From Escherichia coli (GTDB lineage Bacteria > Pseudomonadota > Gammaproteobacteria > Enterobacterales > Enterobacteriaceae): a DNA stretch of 64,000 bases. The translations under genes were made by a program, and so were the position numbers. The stretch's first letter is position 1, and every line of letters starts with the position of its first letter. This document shows positions 26,473 to 55,500 of this stretch, one piece after another. The stretch lies in the NCBI RefSeq assembly GCF_001677475.2, contig NZ_CP015229.1, one strand, 5' to 3'. Under the pieces are notes generated by a model that saw nothing but the letters and a program-made list of their open reading frames with translations, ran no database searches and had not been told where the DNA came from.

Positions 26473-27468
26473 ATGTTTCACGTGGACAATAATACGGGTG
26501 TGCCTGTTATGCCGCCTGTTGCGGCTGAATTAAGCAAAACAACGCTTTATTTCACCGAAGGCGGGAACGGTATTCCACCCACTTATCCAGGACCAGACTG
26601 GTTTAATATTATTCAGTCTGAATTACTGAAAATTCTCGAAGAAGCCGGAATAACGCCGGATAAAGCAGATACCGGTCAGATAATGGCAGCCCTGAAAAAA
26701 CAGTTTATTACGAACAGTGGTTCAGCCGGAGCTATTGCCGGATTAACCGGTGAGAATAATACGTTCCCGTATTTTACCGGCGAAGACACAATGGCATTAA
26801 CGCCGCTCAGTGCGTTTGTGCGCAGTATTCTTGGAAAAAACAGCGGCAGTGAGTTTATTAAAGCAATTGGCCTGTCACCGGACACCCTTTTATCATCAGG
26901 GCGAATAACAGCATTAAGCGGTGGCTCACAGGGAGCAACCGGACTTCAGATGTACGAAGCGTATAACAACGGCTATCCCATTCCATACGGCAATGTGCTG
27001 CATCTGAAGGGGGGGACAGCGTCAGGTGAAGGCGAATTACTGATTGGCTGGAGTGGCACAAGTGGTGCACATGCCCCGGTTTACATCCGCTCAAGACGAG
27101 ACAATGACGAGGCGGAATGGTCTGAATGGGCACAGGTTTTTACCTCAAAAGACAGTTTCAACGCAGCAACTGCTACAAAACTCCAGACAGCCCGCAAGAT
27201 TAATAATGTGGCATTTGATGGCACCAGCGATATCACCATCAGCAGTACCGATTCTGGTGCTGTGCGTGATTTCAGATACACCAGCGAAGTGTTTCACAAT
27301 CCCGGAGGTAACGAAATCACCTGGACGTTTCGCGCGCCCTCAGGTTGCGTTTTGTCAGGTATTTACGTTCAGGAAACGGGAAGAAGTTCTTCGGATAACA
27401 TCGGCGGCGTGTATTACAAACAAACTCAGGTTTATATCAATGGCTCATGGCGCACCGTATCCGGTTAA
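26473..27468 (+). CDS. tail fibre protein (short, S-like)
   Basis: 331 aa; conserved fibre N-terminus (TEGGNGIPPTYPGPDWFNIIQSEL) and fibre repeat KLQTARKINNVAFDGTSDITI. Confidence 0.8.
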   Translation: MFHVDNNTGVPVMPPVAAELSKTTLYFTEGGNGIPPTYPGPDWFNIIQSELLKILEEAGITPDKADTGQIMAALKKQFITNSGSAGAIAGLTGENNTFPYFTGEDTMALTPLSAFVRSILGKNSGSEFIKAIGLSPDTLLSSGRITALSGGSQGATGLQMYEAYNNGYPIPYGNVLHLKGGTASGEGELLIGWSGTSGAHAPVYIRSRRDNDEAEWSEWAQVFTSKDSFNAATATKLQTARKINNVAFDGTSDITISSTDSGAVRDFRYTSEVFHNPGGNEITWTFRAPSGCVLSGIYVQETGRSSSDNIGGVYYKQTQVYINGSWRTVSG

Positions 27469-37917: not shown

Positions 37918-37934
37918 ATTGCTCTAATTAGAAC
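37918..37934 (+). promoter_or_regulatory. partial C1-operator-like site just after repL
   Basis: ATTGCTCTAATTAGAAC: first 11 nt perfect, 12/17 overall. Confidence 0.35.
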
Positions 37935-38082
37935 TATACATACTTTCAACACTTCTAGTTTGCCATGAGGCAAACTCATAGGCGTCTTGGTAAGAGGACA
38001 CAGTTGCCAAAACTGGACGTCCCATTATTGCAATTAATAAACAACTAACGGACAATTCTACCTAACAATAAGTGGAGTTAAC

Positions 38083-38787
38083 ATGTTGAACCGAAGAACA
38101 TTTAATGTATTCTGCGATGAATCCTGTCACCTACTAAATGATCATAATAAAGTCATGGTATTGGGTGCGCTTTGGTGTCCAGGCACTATCACAAAAAAAA
38201 TTGCTAGAGACATCAAGGAATTAAAATTAAAACACAATCTAAAACCTGATTTCGAAATCAAGTGGACTAAAGTATCTGCGTCCAAAGTTGAATTTTACTT
38301 AGATGTCGTAGATTACTTCTTCAGCAACCCAGCATTGCGCTTTAGAGGTGTTGTTGTTCCTGATAAAGAGCAACTGGACCATGCTCGATTCCATCAAGAT
38401 CATAATACTTTCTATTATAAGATGTTTTTTTATGTCTTAAAAAACATAATAGAAAGTAACAACACATACAATATCTACCTAGATATAAAAGATACTTTAG
38501 GTATTGAAAAAATTGAGAAATTAAGAGGGGTTCTTCACAATGATCGCTATGATTACAATCATGAGTCGATAAACAGAATTCAACATATACGATCTCATGA
38601 AGTGCAACAATTGCAGCTAACGGATCTTTTCATTGGTGCGTTAGGCTACGTTCATCGAGGAATGAATAGCAACGCGGGAAAAATCCAAGTCATAAACAGG
38701 ATAAAATCACATACAAACAGGGAGTTACTAAAAAGCACTCTTCCAACAGAAAGTAAATTTAATATTTTCGTGTGGGAGGCTCGCTGA
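38083..38787 (+). CDS. DUF3800-family protein
   Basis: N-terminal signature FNVFCDESCH (DUF3800 xxxYxDESG-type motif), 234 aa, AT-rich; slot of P1 rlfA. Confidence 0.65.
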   Translation: MLNRRTFNVFCDESCHLLNDHNKVMVLGALWCPGTITKKIARDIKELKLKHNLKPDFEIKWTKVSASKVEFYLDVVDYFFSNPALRFRGVVVPDKEQLDHARFHQDHNTFYYKMFFYVLKNIIESNNTYNIYLDIKDTLGIEKIEKLRGVLHNDRYDYNHESINRIQHIRSHEVQQLQLTDLFIGALGYVHRGMNSNAGKIQVINRIKSHTNRELLKSTLPTESKFNIFVWEAR

Positions 38788-39251
38788 TGCTTCAAATGCC
38801 AGATTTATTGTACTTCAATGGAAGTTGGCAAGAGTATATAGACGATGTATATGATGTTGTCAGAGAAGATATTTTAATCTCTAATATAACGTTTAAGGGT
38901 CTCCCTGTTCGATTACGTTATTCACCGGAATATGATGGGAAAGAGTTCGGATTTTGGCATTTAGTATCAGAGGGAAAAATAGAAGAAGAACGTATACCCG
39001 ATCTTGAACGGTGCAAACGAATTCGCTGGATCGCGCATATGATAAGGAATTATAACCATTGCGATATATCATGTTGGTCTGAAAGACGAGGACCAACTGA
39101 AGAGTGGGTAATCTGGAATGAGTATGAAAACTACGTTGTTGTGCTATCCGCACGTAGAGACTATTGGCTTCTCAAAACAGCCTATGTTGTAACCTATGAC
39201 AGTAAAATCAGAACACTCAAACAAAGCAGAAAAAGAGCACTTGGGACATAA
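38787..39251 (+). CDS. uncharacterised partner protein, translationally coupled to the DUF3800 gene
   Basis: ATG at 38787 overlaps the upstream stop (TGATG), GGGAGG RBS; 154 aa; slot of P1 rlfB. Confidence 0.6.
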   Translation: MLQMPDLLYFNGSWQEYIDDVYDVVREDILISNITFKGLPVRLRYSPEYDGKEFGFWHLVSEGKIEEERIPDLERCKRIRWIAHMIRNYNHCDISCWSERRGPTEEWVIWNEYENYVVVLSARRDYWLLKTAYVVTYDSKIRTLKQSRKRALGT

Positions 39252-39416
39252 AAAGCTGAACCCGACACATATTACTATGTATCGGGTTCGATCGCTCTTT
39301 CTACACATGGTAGATGAGTAAGGCAAATCTAACCGATCTACTTTAGCTTTTCAATAGCTAGCTATAACTTTCCGCACATATTCTTCTGATAATTACGGGA
39401 GAGCGGTTGGGTTTTC

Positions 39417-39713
39417 TCATGCTTTTCTGCGCAGAGAAGCACACTTATTCAGCAATAATAAATGCAATTCTTTGTTATCACTAAGTATTTCTACACACCA
39501 ATATCGTAACGTGTTCACTTCAAGTGTAGCCAGCACCTTATGTCGAAAAGCCCCCTCCCCTACACATAACGATGCCTGACATTCTGCTAAGGCACATAAC
39601 CATGTATTGGCATCATAGAGAATCCAATAATGCTCATCTGAAATAGTTATGCATCCAATTATTTCGAATCTTCTTTCTATCGTCTCAGGAGAGTATGAAA
39701 AATCAATTTCCAT
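39417..39713 (-). CDS. hypothetical 98-aa protein (pmgF slot)
   Basis: AT-rich ORF convergent with the DUF3800 pair; Cys/Trp-rich. Confidence 0.45.
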   Translation of the reverse strand: MEIDFSYSPETIERRFEIIGCITISDEHYWILYDANTWLCALAECQASLCVGEGAFRHKVLATLEVNTLRYWCVEILSDNKELHLLLLNKCASLRRKA

Positions 39714-39753
39714 AACATGCTCAAAATCTATCTATACCGGCATAATTTAAGCA

Positions 39754-39780
39754 CAAAAAAGCTCCCGTAGGAGCTTTAAA
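39754..39780 (-). terminator. intrinsic terminator ending the minus-strand late operon
   Basis: On the minus strand AAAGCTCC-TACG-GGAGCTTT + TTTTT. Confidence 0.7.
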
Positions 39781-39796
39781 ATACAAGGGATGACTT

Positions 39797-51407: not shown

Positions 51408-51692
51408 ATGCAGATGGAGCTAATAAGCCGCAAGGAGTTCGATAGCCGTGTAACCAGCGGTGAACTCGACAACTTGCAGGCTATCAAGGTGAAAGAAGGC
51501 TTTTGCCTCATTGGGAATCAGAGCGGAACAAATCGCGTTTTTATGCTTCGCCGTACGGATTTGAAGCCATTTGTCTGGAAGAACGAAATTGGTCCCAGCT
51601 CATACGCTCAAACGAGGGGGTGCCACAACTTGGCCTTTTTCTACAAAGACGAGCTTTCTGTGGTTGATATTCAAGGGTTACAACATGTTTAA
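51408..51692 (+). CDS. hypothetical protein (uhr slot)
   Basis: 94-aa ORF whose stop overlaps the hrdC start. Confidence 0.5.
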
Positions 51693-52590
51693 GCACTGGA
51701 AAAACATTACTATTTATAAACTTTCTCGTGAGGCGGATCTGACCGACTTAGAAGATAAAAAGAAAATGATCCTTTTCACGCCATGCGGTAGTCAGGATAT
51801 GGCCAAGTTCGGTTTTGTATCGCCATTTGGTGATAATTCCGAAGTTATCGCTATGCATGGAAATGGTTTTATCCTTGTTGAAGCAAAGCGCGAAACAAAA
51901 ATTCTTCCCCCGCCGGTTATCCAGCGAGCTATTCAAGAAAAAATTGAAAAACTTGAGCAAGAACAAGCGCGTAAACTGAAGAAAACAGAGAAGGATTCCC
52001 TGAAAGACGAAGTTCTGCATTCTCTTCTGCCACGGGCTTTTTCAAAGTTTTCTGTTATCCAGGCGATCTACGATGGTTCAACTAAACGTATCTATATCAA
52101 TGCCAGCGCGCGGCAGGCAGAGGATATGCTCGCACTTATGCGTAAGTCTCTGGGTTCTCTTCCTGTTGTTCCCCTAAGTGTTGAAAATCCCATTGAATTA
52201 ACGCTGACCGACTGGGTACGTGATGGTAGTGCTCCACAGGGATTTCAAATGGGGGATGCGGCAGAACTTAAGGCAGTGCTTGAGGATGGCGGTATTGCCC
52301 GAGTGAAAAAGCAGGATTTGGGAAGCGATGAAATTTCCACACACCTGGAAGCTGGCAAGCTCGTCACTAAGTTGGCACTCGACTGGCAGAACCGCATTAA
52401 ATTTACACTGGACCATAACTTCAGCCTTACCAGCGTCAAATTTGCGGATGAATTGCTTGAGCAGAACTCTGATATTGATAGTGAAGATGTTGCGCAGCGA
52501 CTGGACGCAGATTTCTTCCTGTTGACCAGTGAAATTTCGTGCCTGGTTGATGCTCTGGTAAATGCCCTTGGCGGAGAGGCTAAGCAGTGA
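51685..52590 (+). CDS. hrdC: RdgC-homolog recombination-associated protein
   Basis: 301 aa; long identical runs to E. coli RdgC ([62 protein letters not shown]). Confidence 0.9.
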
Positions 52591-55500
52591 AAGAGCTGTG
52601 CTATGGATCTGTTTGCAGTGGAATTGAAGCCGCGAGTATTGCCTGGGAACCGTTGGGTATGCGTCCGGCGTGGTTTGCTGAAATCGAGCCTTTTCCATCT
52701 GCCGTTCTTGCGCTCCGCTGGCCCCATGTCGCCAACCTTGGCGACATGACAAAACTTGCCAAAAAAGTCTTGGCTGGGGAAATCGAATCCCCTGACGTGC
52801 TCGTCGGGGGAACACCATGTTTTACCGCGGGGCATATGGTTCTTTGTAAAAATGGTTATAAACCAATAGAAGATGTTTGCCCTGGCGATTACGTAGTCAG
52901 TCATCTCGGGCGGTTACAACAAGTAAAAAGAGTTGGTTCAAAAATAGCTAATACGGGGTTACTTAATGCCGTTGGGCAGCCTTTAGGTATAAGAACAACC
53001 AATGACCATCCCTTCCTGGCTGTTCGGTGGAAAGCCCAAAACACCCGGAAAAATGGCACATATTTTAAGAGAGAGTTGTTGTCTGAACCGGAATGGCGAG
53101 CAGCATGTGATATGCCGGGATATCAATGGTGCGCTCTAACTAATTTCAATATTGCATCTCCAGATATTTGTTCTCGGTTCTTGTCTGAAGAACAGGCTAT
53201 GTATCTTGCGGGCGCTTATGTTGGCGATGGATATATTAGGAGATGGAGAGGTAAATCTAAGAAGGCGGTTGTTTTTGGCATAAATTGCCAGAAATTGAGA
53301 AAGTTTCATTGCCGCATACCAGAAAACATATTTTCCGTGGCAAGCGAAATCCGAGGGAGCATCAAAGTAACCTTGAATGATACGTGTTATGCCAATTGGC
53401 TTAATGAACATTTTGGCGAGTTAAGCCATGCTAAGCGTATCCCTGCATGGGTGATGTCGCATCCATTGCGTCATGTGTTTTTACAAGGCTATCTTGATAC
53501 TGATGGGACACCAAGTGGTAAAGCGGGATTTAGAATTAATAGTGTTAGTCCTGCGCTTGCTTGGGGCGTTGCGGGGTTGTCACAGACTTGTGGTTATGTT
53601 TCTTCGGTCAGCTTTATTGAAGTTGAGCCCAAAAAAGTGATCGAGGATCGCGTGGTAAATCAACGGAATTATTATCAGGTAACAATCTGCCCGCAGAAAT
53701 TGTCACGTAAATCAAGATTGGCTCATGGAATGCTTTTACGAACAGTCAAAGAGTTTAAATCGGTAGGCCTAGATACTGTATACAACATAGAAGTCGAAGG
53801 TGATCATTCCTATATCCTCAATGGTGCGGTGGTCCATAACTGTCAGGCATTCAGTATCGCGGGCTTACGTGGTGGGCTTGATGATGAACGCGGCGCGCTA
53901 ACTTTGAAGTATGTGGAGCTTGCAAATGCAATTGACGACAAACGGTCTGAGTCCTTCCTCAAACCGACAGTTATCGTCTGGGAAAATGTCCCAGGAGTCC
54001 TGTCATCGGCAGATAACGCCTTCGGATGTTTCCTTGCCGGATTGGCTGGAGAAGATGCGCCATTTGAACCAGGTGATCGACCTGAATCAGGAAAAAGTAA
54101 CGCGTTCTGGCGGTGGGATGGCAAAACCGGTTGCCATGCTCCAAAGTGGCCGCAGTGTGGTTGTATTTATGGACCGCAGCGAAAGGTGGCCTGGAGAATC
54201 CTTGATGCCCAATACTTCGGAGTGGCACAACGACGCCGACGCGTGTTTGTTGTCGCAAGTGCTCGAACAGACCTCGATCCCGCAACGGTACTTTTTGAGT
54301 TCGAAGGCGTGCGCCGGAATATTGCGCCGAGCCGAAAAAAGAAGGAAATCGCTTCCGCCATTATTGCAAATGGCGCTGCAATCAGTGGCGAAAGCCTAAA
54401 TCCATGCCTACACGCTGACATGCCACCCGGTATGAAATCGACGAAAGCCGTAAACGCTTTCAGGATGGCGGCATTTGGGGAATATATTGACGATGAAACC
54501 GCATCGACAGTAAAGGCAAGAGATTTTAAAGATGCCACTGACCTTGCCGTTTTTAGCAGCACAGGAGCAGGTTTTTGGTCAGAAGGGCATGGTACATTGC
54601 GGGCACGTGAGCAAGAAAGCCATGAGCATCTTGTTACATTGGCTTTTCCTGAGCGTATGAGCGGTACACAACATGCTGCAACTAAGAATACTTCACCATC
54701 TCTAATGGCTAAAAATCCAACAGCTGTTTGCTATGAAGTAAGAAACGCAGAAGTAGCTGTCCGCCGTCTTACCCCTGTCGAATGTGAAAGGCTGCAAGGT
54801 TTTCCTGATGGGCATACGTTGATCCCGACGGAAAAGCGTAAAAAAGTTAATTCAGATGAACTGGCATATCTTCGCAATCACTATCCAGATTTAAGCGAAG
54901 AAGAGGCCGCGATGCTTGCAGCTGACGGACCGCGTTACAAAGCGATCGGCAATAGTATGGCAATACCAGTAATGCGCTGGATTGGCGATCGGATTACTAA
55001 GGCCGTATGTCGGCAGAAAGAAGGAAGTGAAACAAAAGAGCGAAAAGTTAAACCAGCGGCAGAATTCGAACGGTCCATATTCAAATGGGCTGGTGGAAAA
55101 TTTGGTGTTCTGGAACAAATCTTTCGCTATTTGCCAGAAGGGAAGCGCCTGATTGAACCTTTCGTTGGTGGCGGAGCTGTCTTCATGAATGCCGGATACC
55201 AGGAAAATCTGCTAAATGATGTGAATGCTGACCTGATTAACTTTTACAAGACTCTGCAACGCGAGGCGCATTCACTTATCACTCTGGCACATCGTTTCTT
55301 CCAGGACTACAACACACAGGAAGGATACCTGGCAGTACGGAATGCGTTTAACAAACAAGTCTATGATGATTTACATCGCGCAGCGGCGTTTTTGTTCCTG
55401 AACCGACATTGTTTTAACGGATTGACGCGTTACAACCAGGCCGGTGAGTTCAATGTCGGTTACGGGAAGTATAAAACTCCGTATTTCCCATTACAGGAGA

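Follow-up and report, generated by a model that had tools for sequence, protein, structure and literature searches.

What do two small genes do that are inserted between the lytic replication gene repL and the late operon of a P1-like phage-plasmid? The question is raised by a stretch of 64,000 nucleotides (nt) from Escherichia coli (contig NZ_CP015229.1), which belongs to a P1/P7-like phage-plasmid. This whole stretch is called the window below, and all coordinates are positions within it unless another record is named. An earlier reading of its letters (the original prediction) had described a two-gene cassette, encoding a DUF3800 protein and a partner, as a candidate defence or abortive-infection module, and had left open whether the two genes are the homologues of rlfA and rlfB of phage P1. 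They are: region 37918-39790 shares 97.8% nt identity with positions 51575-53447 of the P1 record (NC_005856) and 98.3% with P7, and RlfA of the window is 100% identical to the P1 protein. The block Orlf(Op55)-rlfA-rlfB-pmgF is annotated at the same positions in the P1 record, including a predicted promoter, PrlfA. In P7, the genes are called rapA and rapB, with the description "putative replication associated"; this label in the P1 and P7 records is a position-based guess. The description as a two-gene cassette has to be revised, because a conserved small RNA gene is also present between rlfB and pmgF. A three-part module, consisting of an RNase HII-like protein, its partner and the small RNA, is conserved across bacteria, where it usually resides in restriction-modification (RM) operons. 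Its parts in the window are the following.

38083..38787, plus strand: rlfA, 234 amino acids (aa), DUF3800 protein (Pfam match)
38787..39251, plus strand: rlfB, 154 aa, coupled partner (TGATG overlap)
39244..39320, minus strand: small RNA gene, unannotated (covariance model R1, covariation, fold z-score)
39295-39318, minus strand: 5' hairpin P1 of the small RNA
39258-39289, minus strand: terminator hairpin P2 of the small RNA, 14-bp stem
39326..39354, minus strand: sigma-70-like promoter of the small RNA (TTGAAA, 17 nt, TAGATT; consensus scan)

An Obligate Gene Pair in Restriction-Modification Operons

The distribution of the pair was analyzed in 80 loci, i.e., the best RlfA-like matches with one genome per species, the record titles of which name >12 bacterial phyla. 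In all 80 of them, an RlfB-like open reading frame (ORF) overlaps the rlfA stop codon or lies at most 3 nt from it. Searching from the other side gave the same picture, as rlfA was found upstream in 32 of 32 viral loci that were detected through RlfB. In the window, the genes overlap by 1 nt in the sequence TGATG, and rlfB starts 8 nt after a GGGAGG sequence. The tight coupling that had been read from this arrangement is supported, and the 80 loci show that the pair co-occurs outside P1-like elements, very often within RM operons.

RM genes in the vicinity of the pair were labeled in rounds of phmmer searches. Among the nearest three genes on each side of the pair, HsdR, HsdM, and HsdS domains predominate, and ResIII, N6_N4_Mtase, Eco57I, and MmeI domains are also common. 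Together, these domains span type I, type III, and type IIG RM systems. Type I genes (encoding HsdR, HsdM, or HsdS) lie within 7 kb in 38 of the 80 loci, typically in the arrangements M-S-[pair]-R and R-M-S-[pair], and a 4-nt overlap with the upstream gene often joins the pair to the operon. One pair is nested, together with MazE/PIN, inside an hsd operon. Other settings were also found. In Citrobacter, the pair is located in a RhuM/SymE island beside a P4-like satellite, and on the E. coli chromosome, next to guaA, an integrative element carries a pair with 67% identity to RlfAB as its first cargo behind the integrase. This element, which is mobilisable or conjugative, also encodes AlpA, RepA_C, a relaxase, and TrbL.

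A Conserved Small RNA Gene Convergent to rlfAB

A comparison of the 200 nt downstream of rlfB in the window and in the 80 loci revealed a core of 24-40 nt, which lies at 39295-39318 in the window and is 92-100% identical across loci of different named phyla. This core belongs to a small RNA gene of ~75 nt that is convergent to rlfAB and comprises a sigma-70-like promoter of its own, followed by a 5' hairpin and a terminator. The 5' hairpin, P1, is near-invariant (CUCAUCUACCAUGUGUAGAARGAG); it is followed by a linker of 5-6 nt, the GC-rich terminator hairpin P2, and a U-run, which in the window overlaps the rlfB stop codon. In the window, the promoter TTGAAA-17-TAGATT stops 8 nt short of hairpin P1, and a promoter of the type TTGA-17-TAtAaT is found at the same distance of 8 nt from the hairpin in 50 of 71 loci. 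A promoter score of at least 9/12 was obtained for 58% of the loci vs. 6% of shuffled sequences.

The structure of the RNA is supported by a fold z-score of -6 for the region and by covariation. In the alignment, 96.2% of the cells are paired, and 14 of 18 base pairs show compensatory changes, with 149 doubly changed cells. None of 500 shuffles reached these values, and in slid controls, pairing amounted to only 40-53%. The transcribed strand can also be deduced. At one pair of hairpin P1, 18-20 sequences have a G-U pair, and at one pair of hairpin P2, 39 have one; since these would be A-C mismatches on the opposite strand, the direction of transcription is fixed, and the positions of promoter and terminator agree with transcription of the minus strand. 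For the same reason, the possibility that the element is a plus-strand 3' untranslated region of rlfAB was rejected.

A covariance model, R1, built from 65 sequences, detected the element in the window at 39244-39320 on the minus strand (63.9 bits, E 2e-13). It gave exactly one strong match per locus (E <=1.3e-6), at the 3' end of rlfB, in 85 of 86 sources; among these are P1, P7, and ~20 loci that had not contributed to the seed. The single exception is a contig that ends there. The sole other match in 1.2 Mb had an E of 0.83. The RNA gene is convergent, downstream, and single-copy in 85 of 85 genome-type loci, and three viral loci have it on the same strand as the genes, 80-100 nt downstream of rlfB. 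It is absent from P1-like plasmids with an alternative cargo (see below). The RNA is not annotated in the P1 and P7 records. No Rfam family to which the RNA could be assigned was found: there was no match to a DUF3800 family at E <=10, either with the 151-nt element or with a 3.5-kb region, and with seven related loci containing canonical copies there was no match to the RNA at the gathering score.

The hairpin in this region had been noticed in the original prediction. It does exist, one base away from the position given there (39258-39289), and it is not a free-standing feature, as it constitutes terminator P2 of the small RNA gene. A role as a mere terminator of pmgF or of the late operon was considered and rejected in view of the gene's own conserved promoter and conserved 5' hairpin. 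The idea of a guide RNA was also rejected, because there is no variable segment; only the terminator stem varies, and it does so by covariation. The occurrence of the RNA gene in either orientation relative to the protein genes speaks for an RNA that acts in trans and is bound by protein, rather than for control solely by antisense pairing.

Orphan Copies of the RNA in Phages

The RNA also occurs without the proteins. An exact-pattern scan of IMG/VR for the 24-nt hairpin retrieved 104 stretches. The 102 loci that were analyzed comprise 80 non-redundant ones, only ~15 of which are located beside rlfAB. Restricting the set to loci with at least 1.5 kb of sequence on both sides left 42 non-redundant loci, and in 32 of these, there is no RlfA-like ORF, even at E <=10, and no RlfB. 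The genes that neighbor the orphans are ordinary phage genes: the commonest Pfam family is present in only 3 of 149 neighboring proteins, and DUF3800 is not among the 25 Pfam families listed for these 149 proteins. The orphans keep both helices, with 97.5% of the cells paired and 9 of 10 terminator pairs covarying in an alignment that was fitted to the model and, therefore, leans to its structure.

Several orphans are tandem duplicates, and tRNA genes were found near 6 of 12 loci that were checked, in some cases immediately adjacent. One viral contig (IMGVR_UViG_3300028048_000059) contains, amid the tRNA genes of the region that holds an orphan copy, a ROOL RNA (RF03087, 283 bits). Cultured phages with the motif are the SPbeta family of Bacillus subtilis and two Vibrio phages. 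In SPbeta (NC_001884, 59152-60834, in the gap between yonN and yonK), two tandem copies are followed 50 nt later by the DUF3800-VIII RNA of Rfam. The three elements are located at 2502-2556, 2561-2629, and 2682-2747 of the extracted stretch, in a 1.7-kb gap without an annotated feature. A tblastn search of 50,697 phage records with RlfA yielded matches in 19 records, none of which is an SPbeta-family or Vibrio phage.

Decay of complete cassettes does not account for the orphans, given the tandem copies, the location in tRNA clusters, and the complete genomes without RlfA. This is the pattern to be expected of an RNA decoy directed against such a system. Phage PhiTE is reported to escape the ToxIN system by means of a pseudo-ToxI RNA. 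The near-invariance of the hairpin, the free orientation of the RNA gene, and the orphan copies together argue for an action in trans, through recognition by protein.

The RlfA and RlfB Proteins

As anticipated, the 234-aa protein belongs to the DUF3800 family. It matches the Pfam profile (PF12686) over positions 1-148 of 149 (54.2 bits, with a cut-off of 21; E 3.5e-14). Its relatives form 5464 clusters at E <=1e-3, and its identity to homologues of Nitrospirota, Bacteroidota, Chloroflexota, Desulfobacterota, and other groups amounts to 48-58%. In 30 diverse homologues, residues D12, E13, D134, Q178, and D181 are invariant, as are C15, H16, C32, H100, and H107. For the DUF3800 family, DE and QxxD motifs have been described (PMC7736814), and D12/E13 and Q178xxD181 of RlfA match these N-terminal and C-terminal motifs, respectively. 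The fold is RNase H2 (RNase HII)-like, in line with the DUF3800 family. The invariant carboxylates are found at the end of strand 1, after the strand 127-133, and within the helix 175-191, a placement in the model that is consistent with RNase HII. However, when RlfA was aligned by hhalign with E. coli RNase HII, the sequence used for which is the same as PDB 7uwe_C, the probability was 0.1%, i.e., there was no profile similarity; the relationship is, therefore, at the fold level only. Neither for RlfA nor for RlfB did sequence searches of the PDB yield a match, whether single sequences or profiles were used. In addition to its DEDD-type carboxylates, the RlfA subfamily has invariant or near-invariant cysteines and histidines (C11, C15, H16, C32, H100, H107), including those of the sequence CDESCH, which might form a metal site.

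RlfB, in which no nameable motif had been seen at the outset, indeed has no match in Pfam or NCBIfam, and neither were matches found across 93 diverse members of its family. The family consists of 1779 clusters at 50% identity, nearly all of them stand-alone proteins of 150-190 aa, and only H58 and R75 are invariant across the 93 members. A structure model with a predicted local distance difference test (pLDDT) score of 91.5 gave nothing significant in a Foldseek search of the PDB, and it shows a weak resemblance to the colicin D fold. We take this resemblance as a lead that RlfB may be RNase-toxin-like, with the RelE/ParE-colicin D (BECR-fold) RNases as the candidate group. No small gene for a cognate protein antitoxin or immunity protein is found beside rlfB; the sole constant protein neighbor is the 234-aa RlfA. 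The names given to rlfB by RefSeq/PGAP vary between "oxidoreductase," "replication protein," and "hypothetical protein," and the first two have no backing from Pfam, NCBIfam, PDB, or fold searches.

Of the two proteins, RlfA is the better conserved one in 77 of 77 loci (median identities, 52 vs. 36%). In some loci, including two P1-like viral contigs, rlfB is truncated or split beside an intact rlfA, and truncated variants of RlfA also exist. Such disrupted copies were considered as an indicator of which protein is the toxin and which the antitoxin; the way in which the loci were collected biases this comparison, so that no asymmetry can be deduced from it.

An Exchangeable Slot Behind a C1 Operator

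In the window, the module is part of a larger block, to which the following features belong.

37918..37934, plus strand: C1 repressor operator Orlf, formerly Op55 (coincides in position and sequence with the annotated P1/P7 site)
38028..38056, plus strand: predicted sigma-70 promoter PrlfA (transferred from P1 NC_005856 by ungapped alignment)
39417..39713, minus strand: pmgF, convergent 98-aa ORF (P1 annotation; PHROG 7349)
37929..39754, no strand: AT-rich exchangeable block (homology to alternative-cargo plasmids ends at query positions 860 and 2687)

The switch to AT-rich DNA after repL that had been noticed by eye is evident from the GC content, which is 0.372 in 37918-39790, compared with 0.453 in repL, 0.488 in bplB, and 0.51 in the whole window. 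The stretch from repL to bplB is matched by 679 plasmids, only 97 of which carry the rlfA-rlfB-pmgF version, and the block is missing from ~85% of the P1-like plasmids that retain repL and/or bplB. Alternative cargoes are an 81-aa ORF with a Hok/Gef toxin, a 198-aa ORF on the minus strand, or an Ail/Lom outer-membrane protein. Alignments place the left junction within the C1 operator, after its first 11 nt, and the right junction just before the terminator hairpin of bplB. Among 5426 complete E. coli genomes, 120 contain the cassette, nearly always on plasmids of ~90-100 kb. An independent survey of P1-like plasmids also described the replacement of rlfA-rlfB-pmgF (PMC6906374), and a genome-wide CRISPR interference (CRISPRi) study of P1 found rlfA, rlfB, and pmgF to be non-essential (PMC10695390). 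The block is best explained as horizontally acquired, AT-rich accessory cargo in a variable slot that separates repL, the lytic replicon, from the late tail operon, in agreement with the accessory slot that had been proposed. An essential role in replication from oriL, which the original prediction had set against a defence function, is opposed by the CRISPRi result. The convergent 98-aa ORF, also recognized beforehand, is pmgF of P1. As pmgF was found only in P1-like loci, it was rejected as a third protein of the conserved module; it travels with the block in P1-like elements and is outside the module.

The operator deserves separate mention. The sequence ATTGCTCTAAT is found at 37918 and is exactly the site that is annotated in P1 as Orlf/Op55. 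The original prediction had recognized it; the distance to the repL stop codon is 3 nt and not 2. The site contains 11 of 11 core bases and, counted by hand, matches in 12 of 17 positions the 17-bp C1 operator consensus ATTGCTCTAATAAATTT. With at most one mismatch, the 11-mer ATTGCTCTAAT occurs six times in the window, vs. 1.2 matches expected by chance. The other matches (0-1 mismatch), at 26857, 34462, 36153, 51320, and 55864, are presumably other P1 operators; judging from the offset to P1, 36153 should be Op53 and 34462 Oc4.

A special connection of the cassette to prophage immunity, as had been envisaged, does not follow from this site. In aligned variants, the first 11 operator nt are kept upstream of the hok and 198-aa alternative cargoes and are absent in the Ail/Lom variant. 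Since homology breaks right after these 11 nt, the operator core belongs to the backbone, and it is, therefore, not wiring that is specific for the rlfAB cassette. The rlfAB operon is induced early in lytic growth of P1, together with repL. The consensus promoter scan of the window did not pick up PrlfA. Just past the operator, in the rlfA leader, a hairpin with a perfect stem of 8 bp and a loop of 4 nt, AGTTTGCC-ATGA-GGCAAACT, is located at 37957-37976. It is nearly conserved in P1 and P7 and could be a repL terminator or a leader structure.

Possible Function of the Module

Both proteins match a candidate defence system of PADLOC, PDC-M04 (PDC-M04A vs. RlfA, 1e-95; PDC-M04B vs. RlfB, 2.1e-51), with the genes adjacent and in the A-then-B order. 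The defence role that was first proposed for the locus is strengthened by this match; our literature search added no anti-phage or toxicity phenotype to it. In our opinion, the best reading of RlfA, RlfB, and the small RNA is that of an RNA-controlled nuclease module for genetic conflicts, of the toxin-antitoxin (TA) or abortive-infection type, although we hold it tentatively and would give it somewhat less than an even chance.

The conserved core consists of the RNase HII-like RlfA, the translationally coupled RlfB, and the convergent RNA of ~75 nt, which has a constitutive-looking promoter. RlfA and RlfB would form a nuclease complex, to which the small RNA may bind through its invariant hairpin, thereby holding it in check like a type III RNA antitoxin. 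If an invader disturbs transcription or RNA stability in the host, or if the cell loses the module, the supply of the short RNA would be exhausted, and the freed complex could attack nucleic acids, i.e., RNA/DNA hybrids or RNA in the case of RlfA and possibly RNA in the case of RlfB. As a result, the infection would be aborted, or a cell that has lost the element would be killed. On chromosomes, the module within RM operons might serve as a second line of defence, and in P1, it would be an optional cargo behind a C1 operator. A more specific version of this proposal is at present doubtful. In it, PDC-M04/RlfAB would be an RNA-gated immune nuclease that backs up RM, with a constitutively made RNA of ~70 nt keeping the pair of an RNase HII-like and a RelE-like protein inactive until infection depletes it, and the orphan RNAs of SPbeta, of Vibrio phages, and of many large uncultured phages would be decoys that disarm it. 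For a connection of RlfAB with tRNA there are just two hints, the weak colicin-D-like fold of RlfB and the orphan RNAs located in phage tRNA clusters.

Several observations weigh against an RNA-gated conflict module. Being located behind a C1 operator and induced early in the lytic cycle, rlfAB may be silent in lysogens, and such control is a poor fit to a defence system encoded by a prophage. Expression of the small RNA is predicted from sequence alone, and instead of inhibiting, the RNA might just as well serve as a necessary cofactor or as a substrate. RNAs of the ToxI type form tandem repeats that are encoded upstream on the same strand and cut by the toxin, whereas the present RNA is single-copy, usually convergent, located downstream, and accompanied by two proteins. 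Also, the greater conservation of RlfA relative to RlfB would be unusual if RlfA were merely a regulator. Finally, our literature searches found no phenotype for rlfAB, PDC-M04, or any DUF3800-associated RNA, no published test or mention of PDC-M04, and no paper that reports a function for DUF3800.

The first alternative is that RlfAB is a constitutively acting ribonucleoprotein enzyme, with the RNA as its structural or targeting cofactor and with the orphans of phages hijacking the RlfAB of the host or mimicking its substrate. The RNase H-like fold that RlfA shares with PIWI and RuvC-type RNA-guided nucleases would suit this idea, as would the extreme sequence conservation of the hairpin, which implies direct recognition by protein. 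Moreover, genes for DUF3800 proteins are repeatedly found next to structured RNAs, retrons, and Cas12a2/a3/Cas13 loci (PMC5737381, PMC7736814, PMC10910872, PMC13594972, preprint 10.64898/2026.08.25.746378). However, the RNA lacks a variable, guide-like segment, and its orphan and tandem copies in phages without the proteins are not easily explained in this way. We consider a constitutive enzyme unlikely.

Alternatively, the module might be a pure addiction system, i.e., a TA-like stabilizer of the P1 plasmid prophage, of an RM operon, or of an integrative element, without direct anti-phage activity. It is always located on mobile or exchangeable DNA, a Hok/Gef toxin occupies the same slot in other P1-like plasmids, and a labile RNA combined with stable proteins follows the classic logic of post-segregational killing. 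On the other hand, P1 already carries phd/doc and partition systems, the strong linkage to RM operons is typical of defence islands, and addiction can hardly account for the orphan RNAs that reside in tRNA clusters or in viral contigs of the lytic or jumbo type. We consider this option decidedly unlikely.

A role in counter-defence or in modulation of RM, by which the module would shield its carrier from systems of the host or of competitors or would tune the linked restriction enzyme, appears very improbable. The frequent location of the pair in one operon with hsd genes, often with a 4-nt overlap with the upstream gene, the need of P1 to evade restriction, and the early expression during P1 infection are in line with such a role, but the module is also found without an RM neighbor (in P1, the E. 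coli integrative element, and the Citrobacter island), and the RNA and its orphan copies are left unexplained. The least supported reading, with hardly any probability left, is the one implied in the original P1/P7 annotation, that RlfA, assisted by RlfB, processes the RNA/DNA hybrids formed by P53 transcription through oriL and thereby promotes the lytic replication of P1: it fits the position of the operon, which follows repL/oriL directly and is preceded by a C1 operator, the early co-induction with repL, and an RNase H-like fold suited to the processing of R-loops, but not the dispensability of the genes for P1 plaque formation in CRISPRi, the lack of the block in most P1-like plasmids that retain repL and/or bplB, or the presence of the same trio in RM operons of unrelated phyla with no repL nearby.

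Significance of the Locus

DUF3800 proteins recur near retrons, Cas12a2/a3, Cas13, and eleven structured RNAs, and no function has been assigned to these proteins or RNAs. The locus described here is a compact and complete example in phage P1 and E. coli, the easiest experimental system, with a matching orphan RNA in SPbeta of B. subtilis. If the RNA does gate a nuclease and the phage copies do act as decoys, this would define a widespread immune module with a link to RM and provide a function for the DUF3800 RNA motifs, which have lacked an explanation since 2017; a class of RNA-only anti-defence genes would become searchable by covariance model. Should this reading prove wrong, it still holds that the annotations of P1 and P7 miss a conserved RNA gene, and the RefSeq names "oxidoreductase" and "replication protein" of rlfB lack support.

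Comparison With Known Systems

In 2017, eleven RNA motifs associated with DUF3800 genes (I-XI; e.g., RF02969, RF02968, RF03075 of Rfam) were described, the function of which was not known (PMC5737381). Rfam includes at least DUF3800-I, DUF3800-VIII, and DUF3800-IX. Like the small RNA, these motifs are structured, lie beside a DUF3800 gene in either orientation, and end in an intrinsic terminator. However, in a comparison that was limited to the models deposited in Rfam, the present motif, a 24-nt hairpin followed by a terminator, was unlike the DUF3800-VIII hairpin, and in SPbeta, the DUF3800-VIII model matches a neighboring but different element.

With type III TA systems (ToxIN, CptIN, TenpIN), the module has in common a small RNA beside a nuclease-like protein, with which it is conserved (85 of 86 sources). 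Further similarities, also to pseudo-ToxI, are recognition, predicted for the present RNA, by sequence plus structure rather than by antisense pairing and the existence of RNA-only copies in phages. A type I TA system of the txpA/RatA-like kind was tested as a model and failed: the overlap of the RNA with the rlfB ORF, as judged from core-to-stop distances, varies from 0 to ~45 nt, and the txpA/RatA-like toxin is a small hydrophobic peptide, whereas RlfA (234 aa) and RlfB (154 aa) both look soluble. Moreover, antisense pairing needs no conserved hairpin sequence, so that the conserved hairpin of the small RNA speaks against this type.

Type VII retrons have DUF3800 effectors; they include a reverse transcriptase, which is not present here. 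Relative to RNase HII and HIII, RlfA has extra invariant cysteines and histidines. PrrC/RloC-type and other RM-linked ORFs resemble RlfAB in that they, too, are inserted between hsd genes or behind them, apparently as a back-up, but PrrC has no sequence or fold relation to RlfAB. A further counterpart is PDC-M04 of PADLOC, which comprises the same two proteins as RlfA-RlfB in the same order. It is defined by the proteins alone, and the RNA component is outside its definition. Whereas the P1 genes and the candidate defence pair were already known, the small RNA gene and its orphan copies in phages appear to be new.

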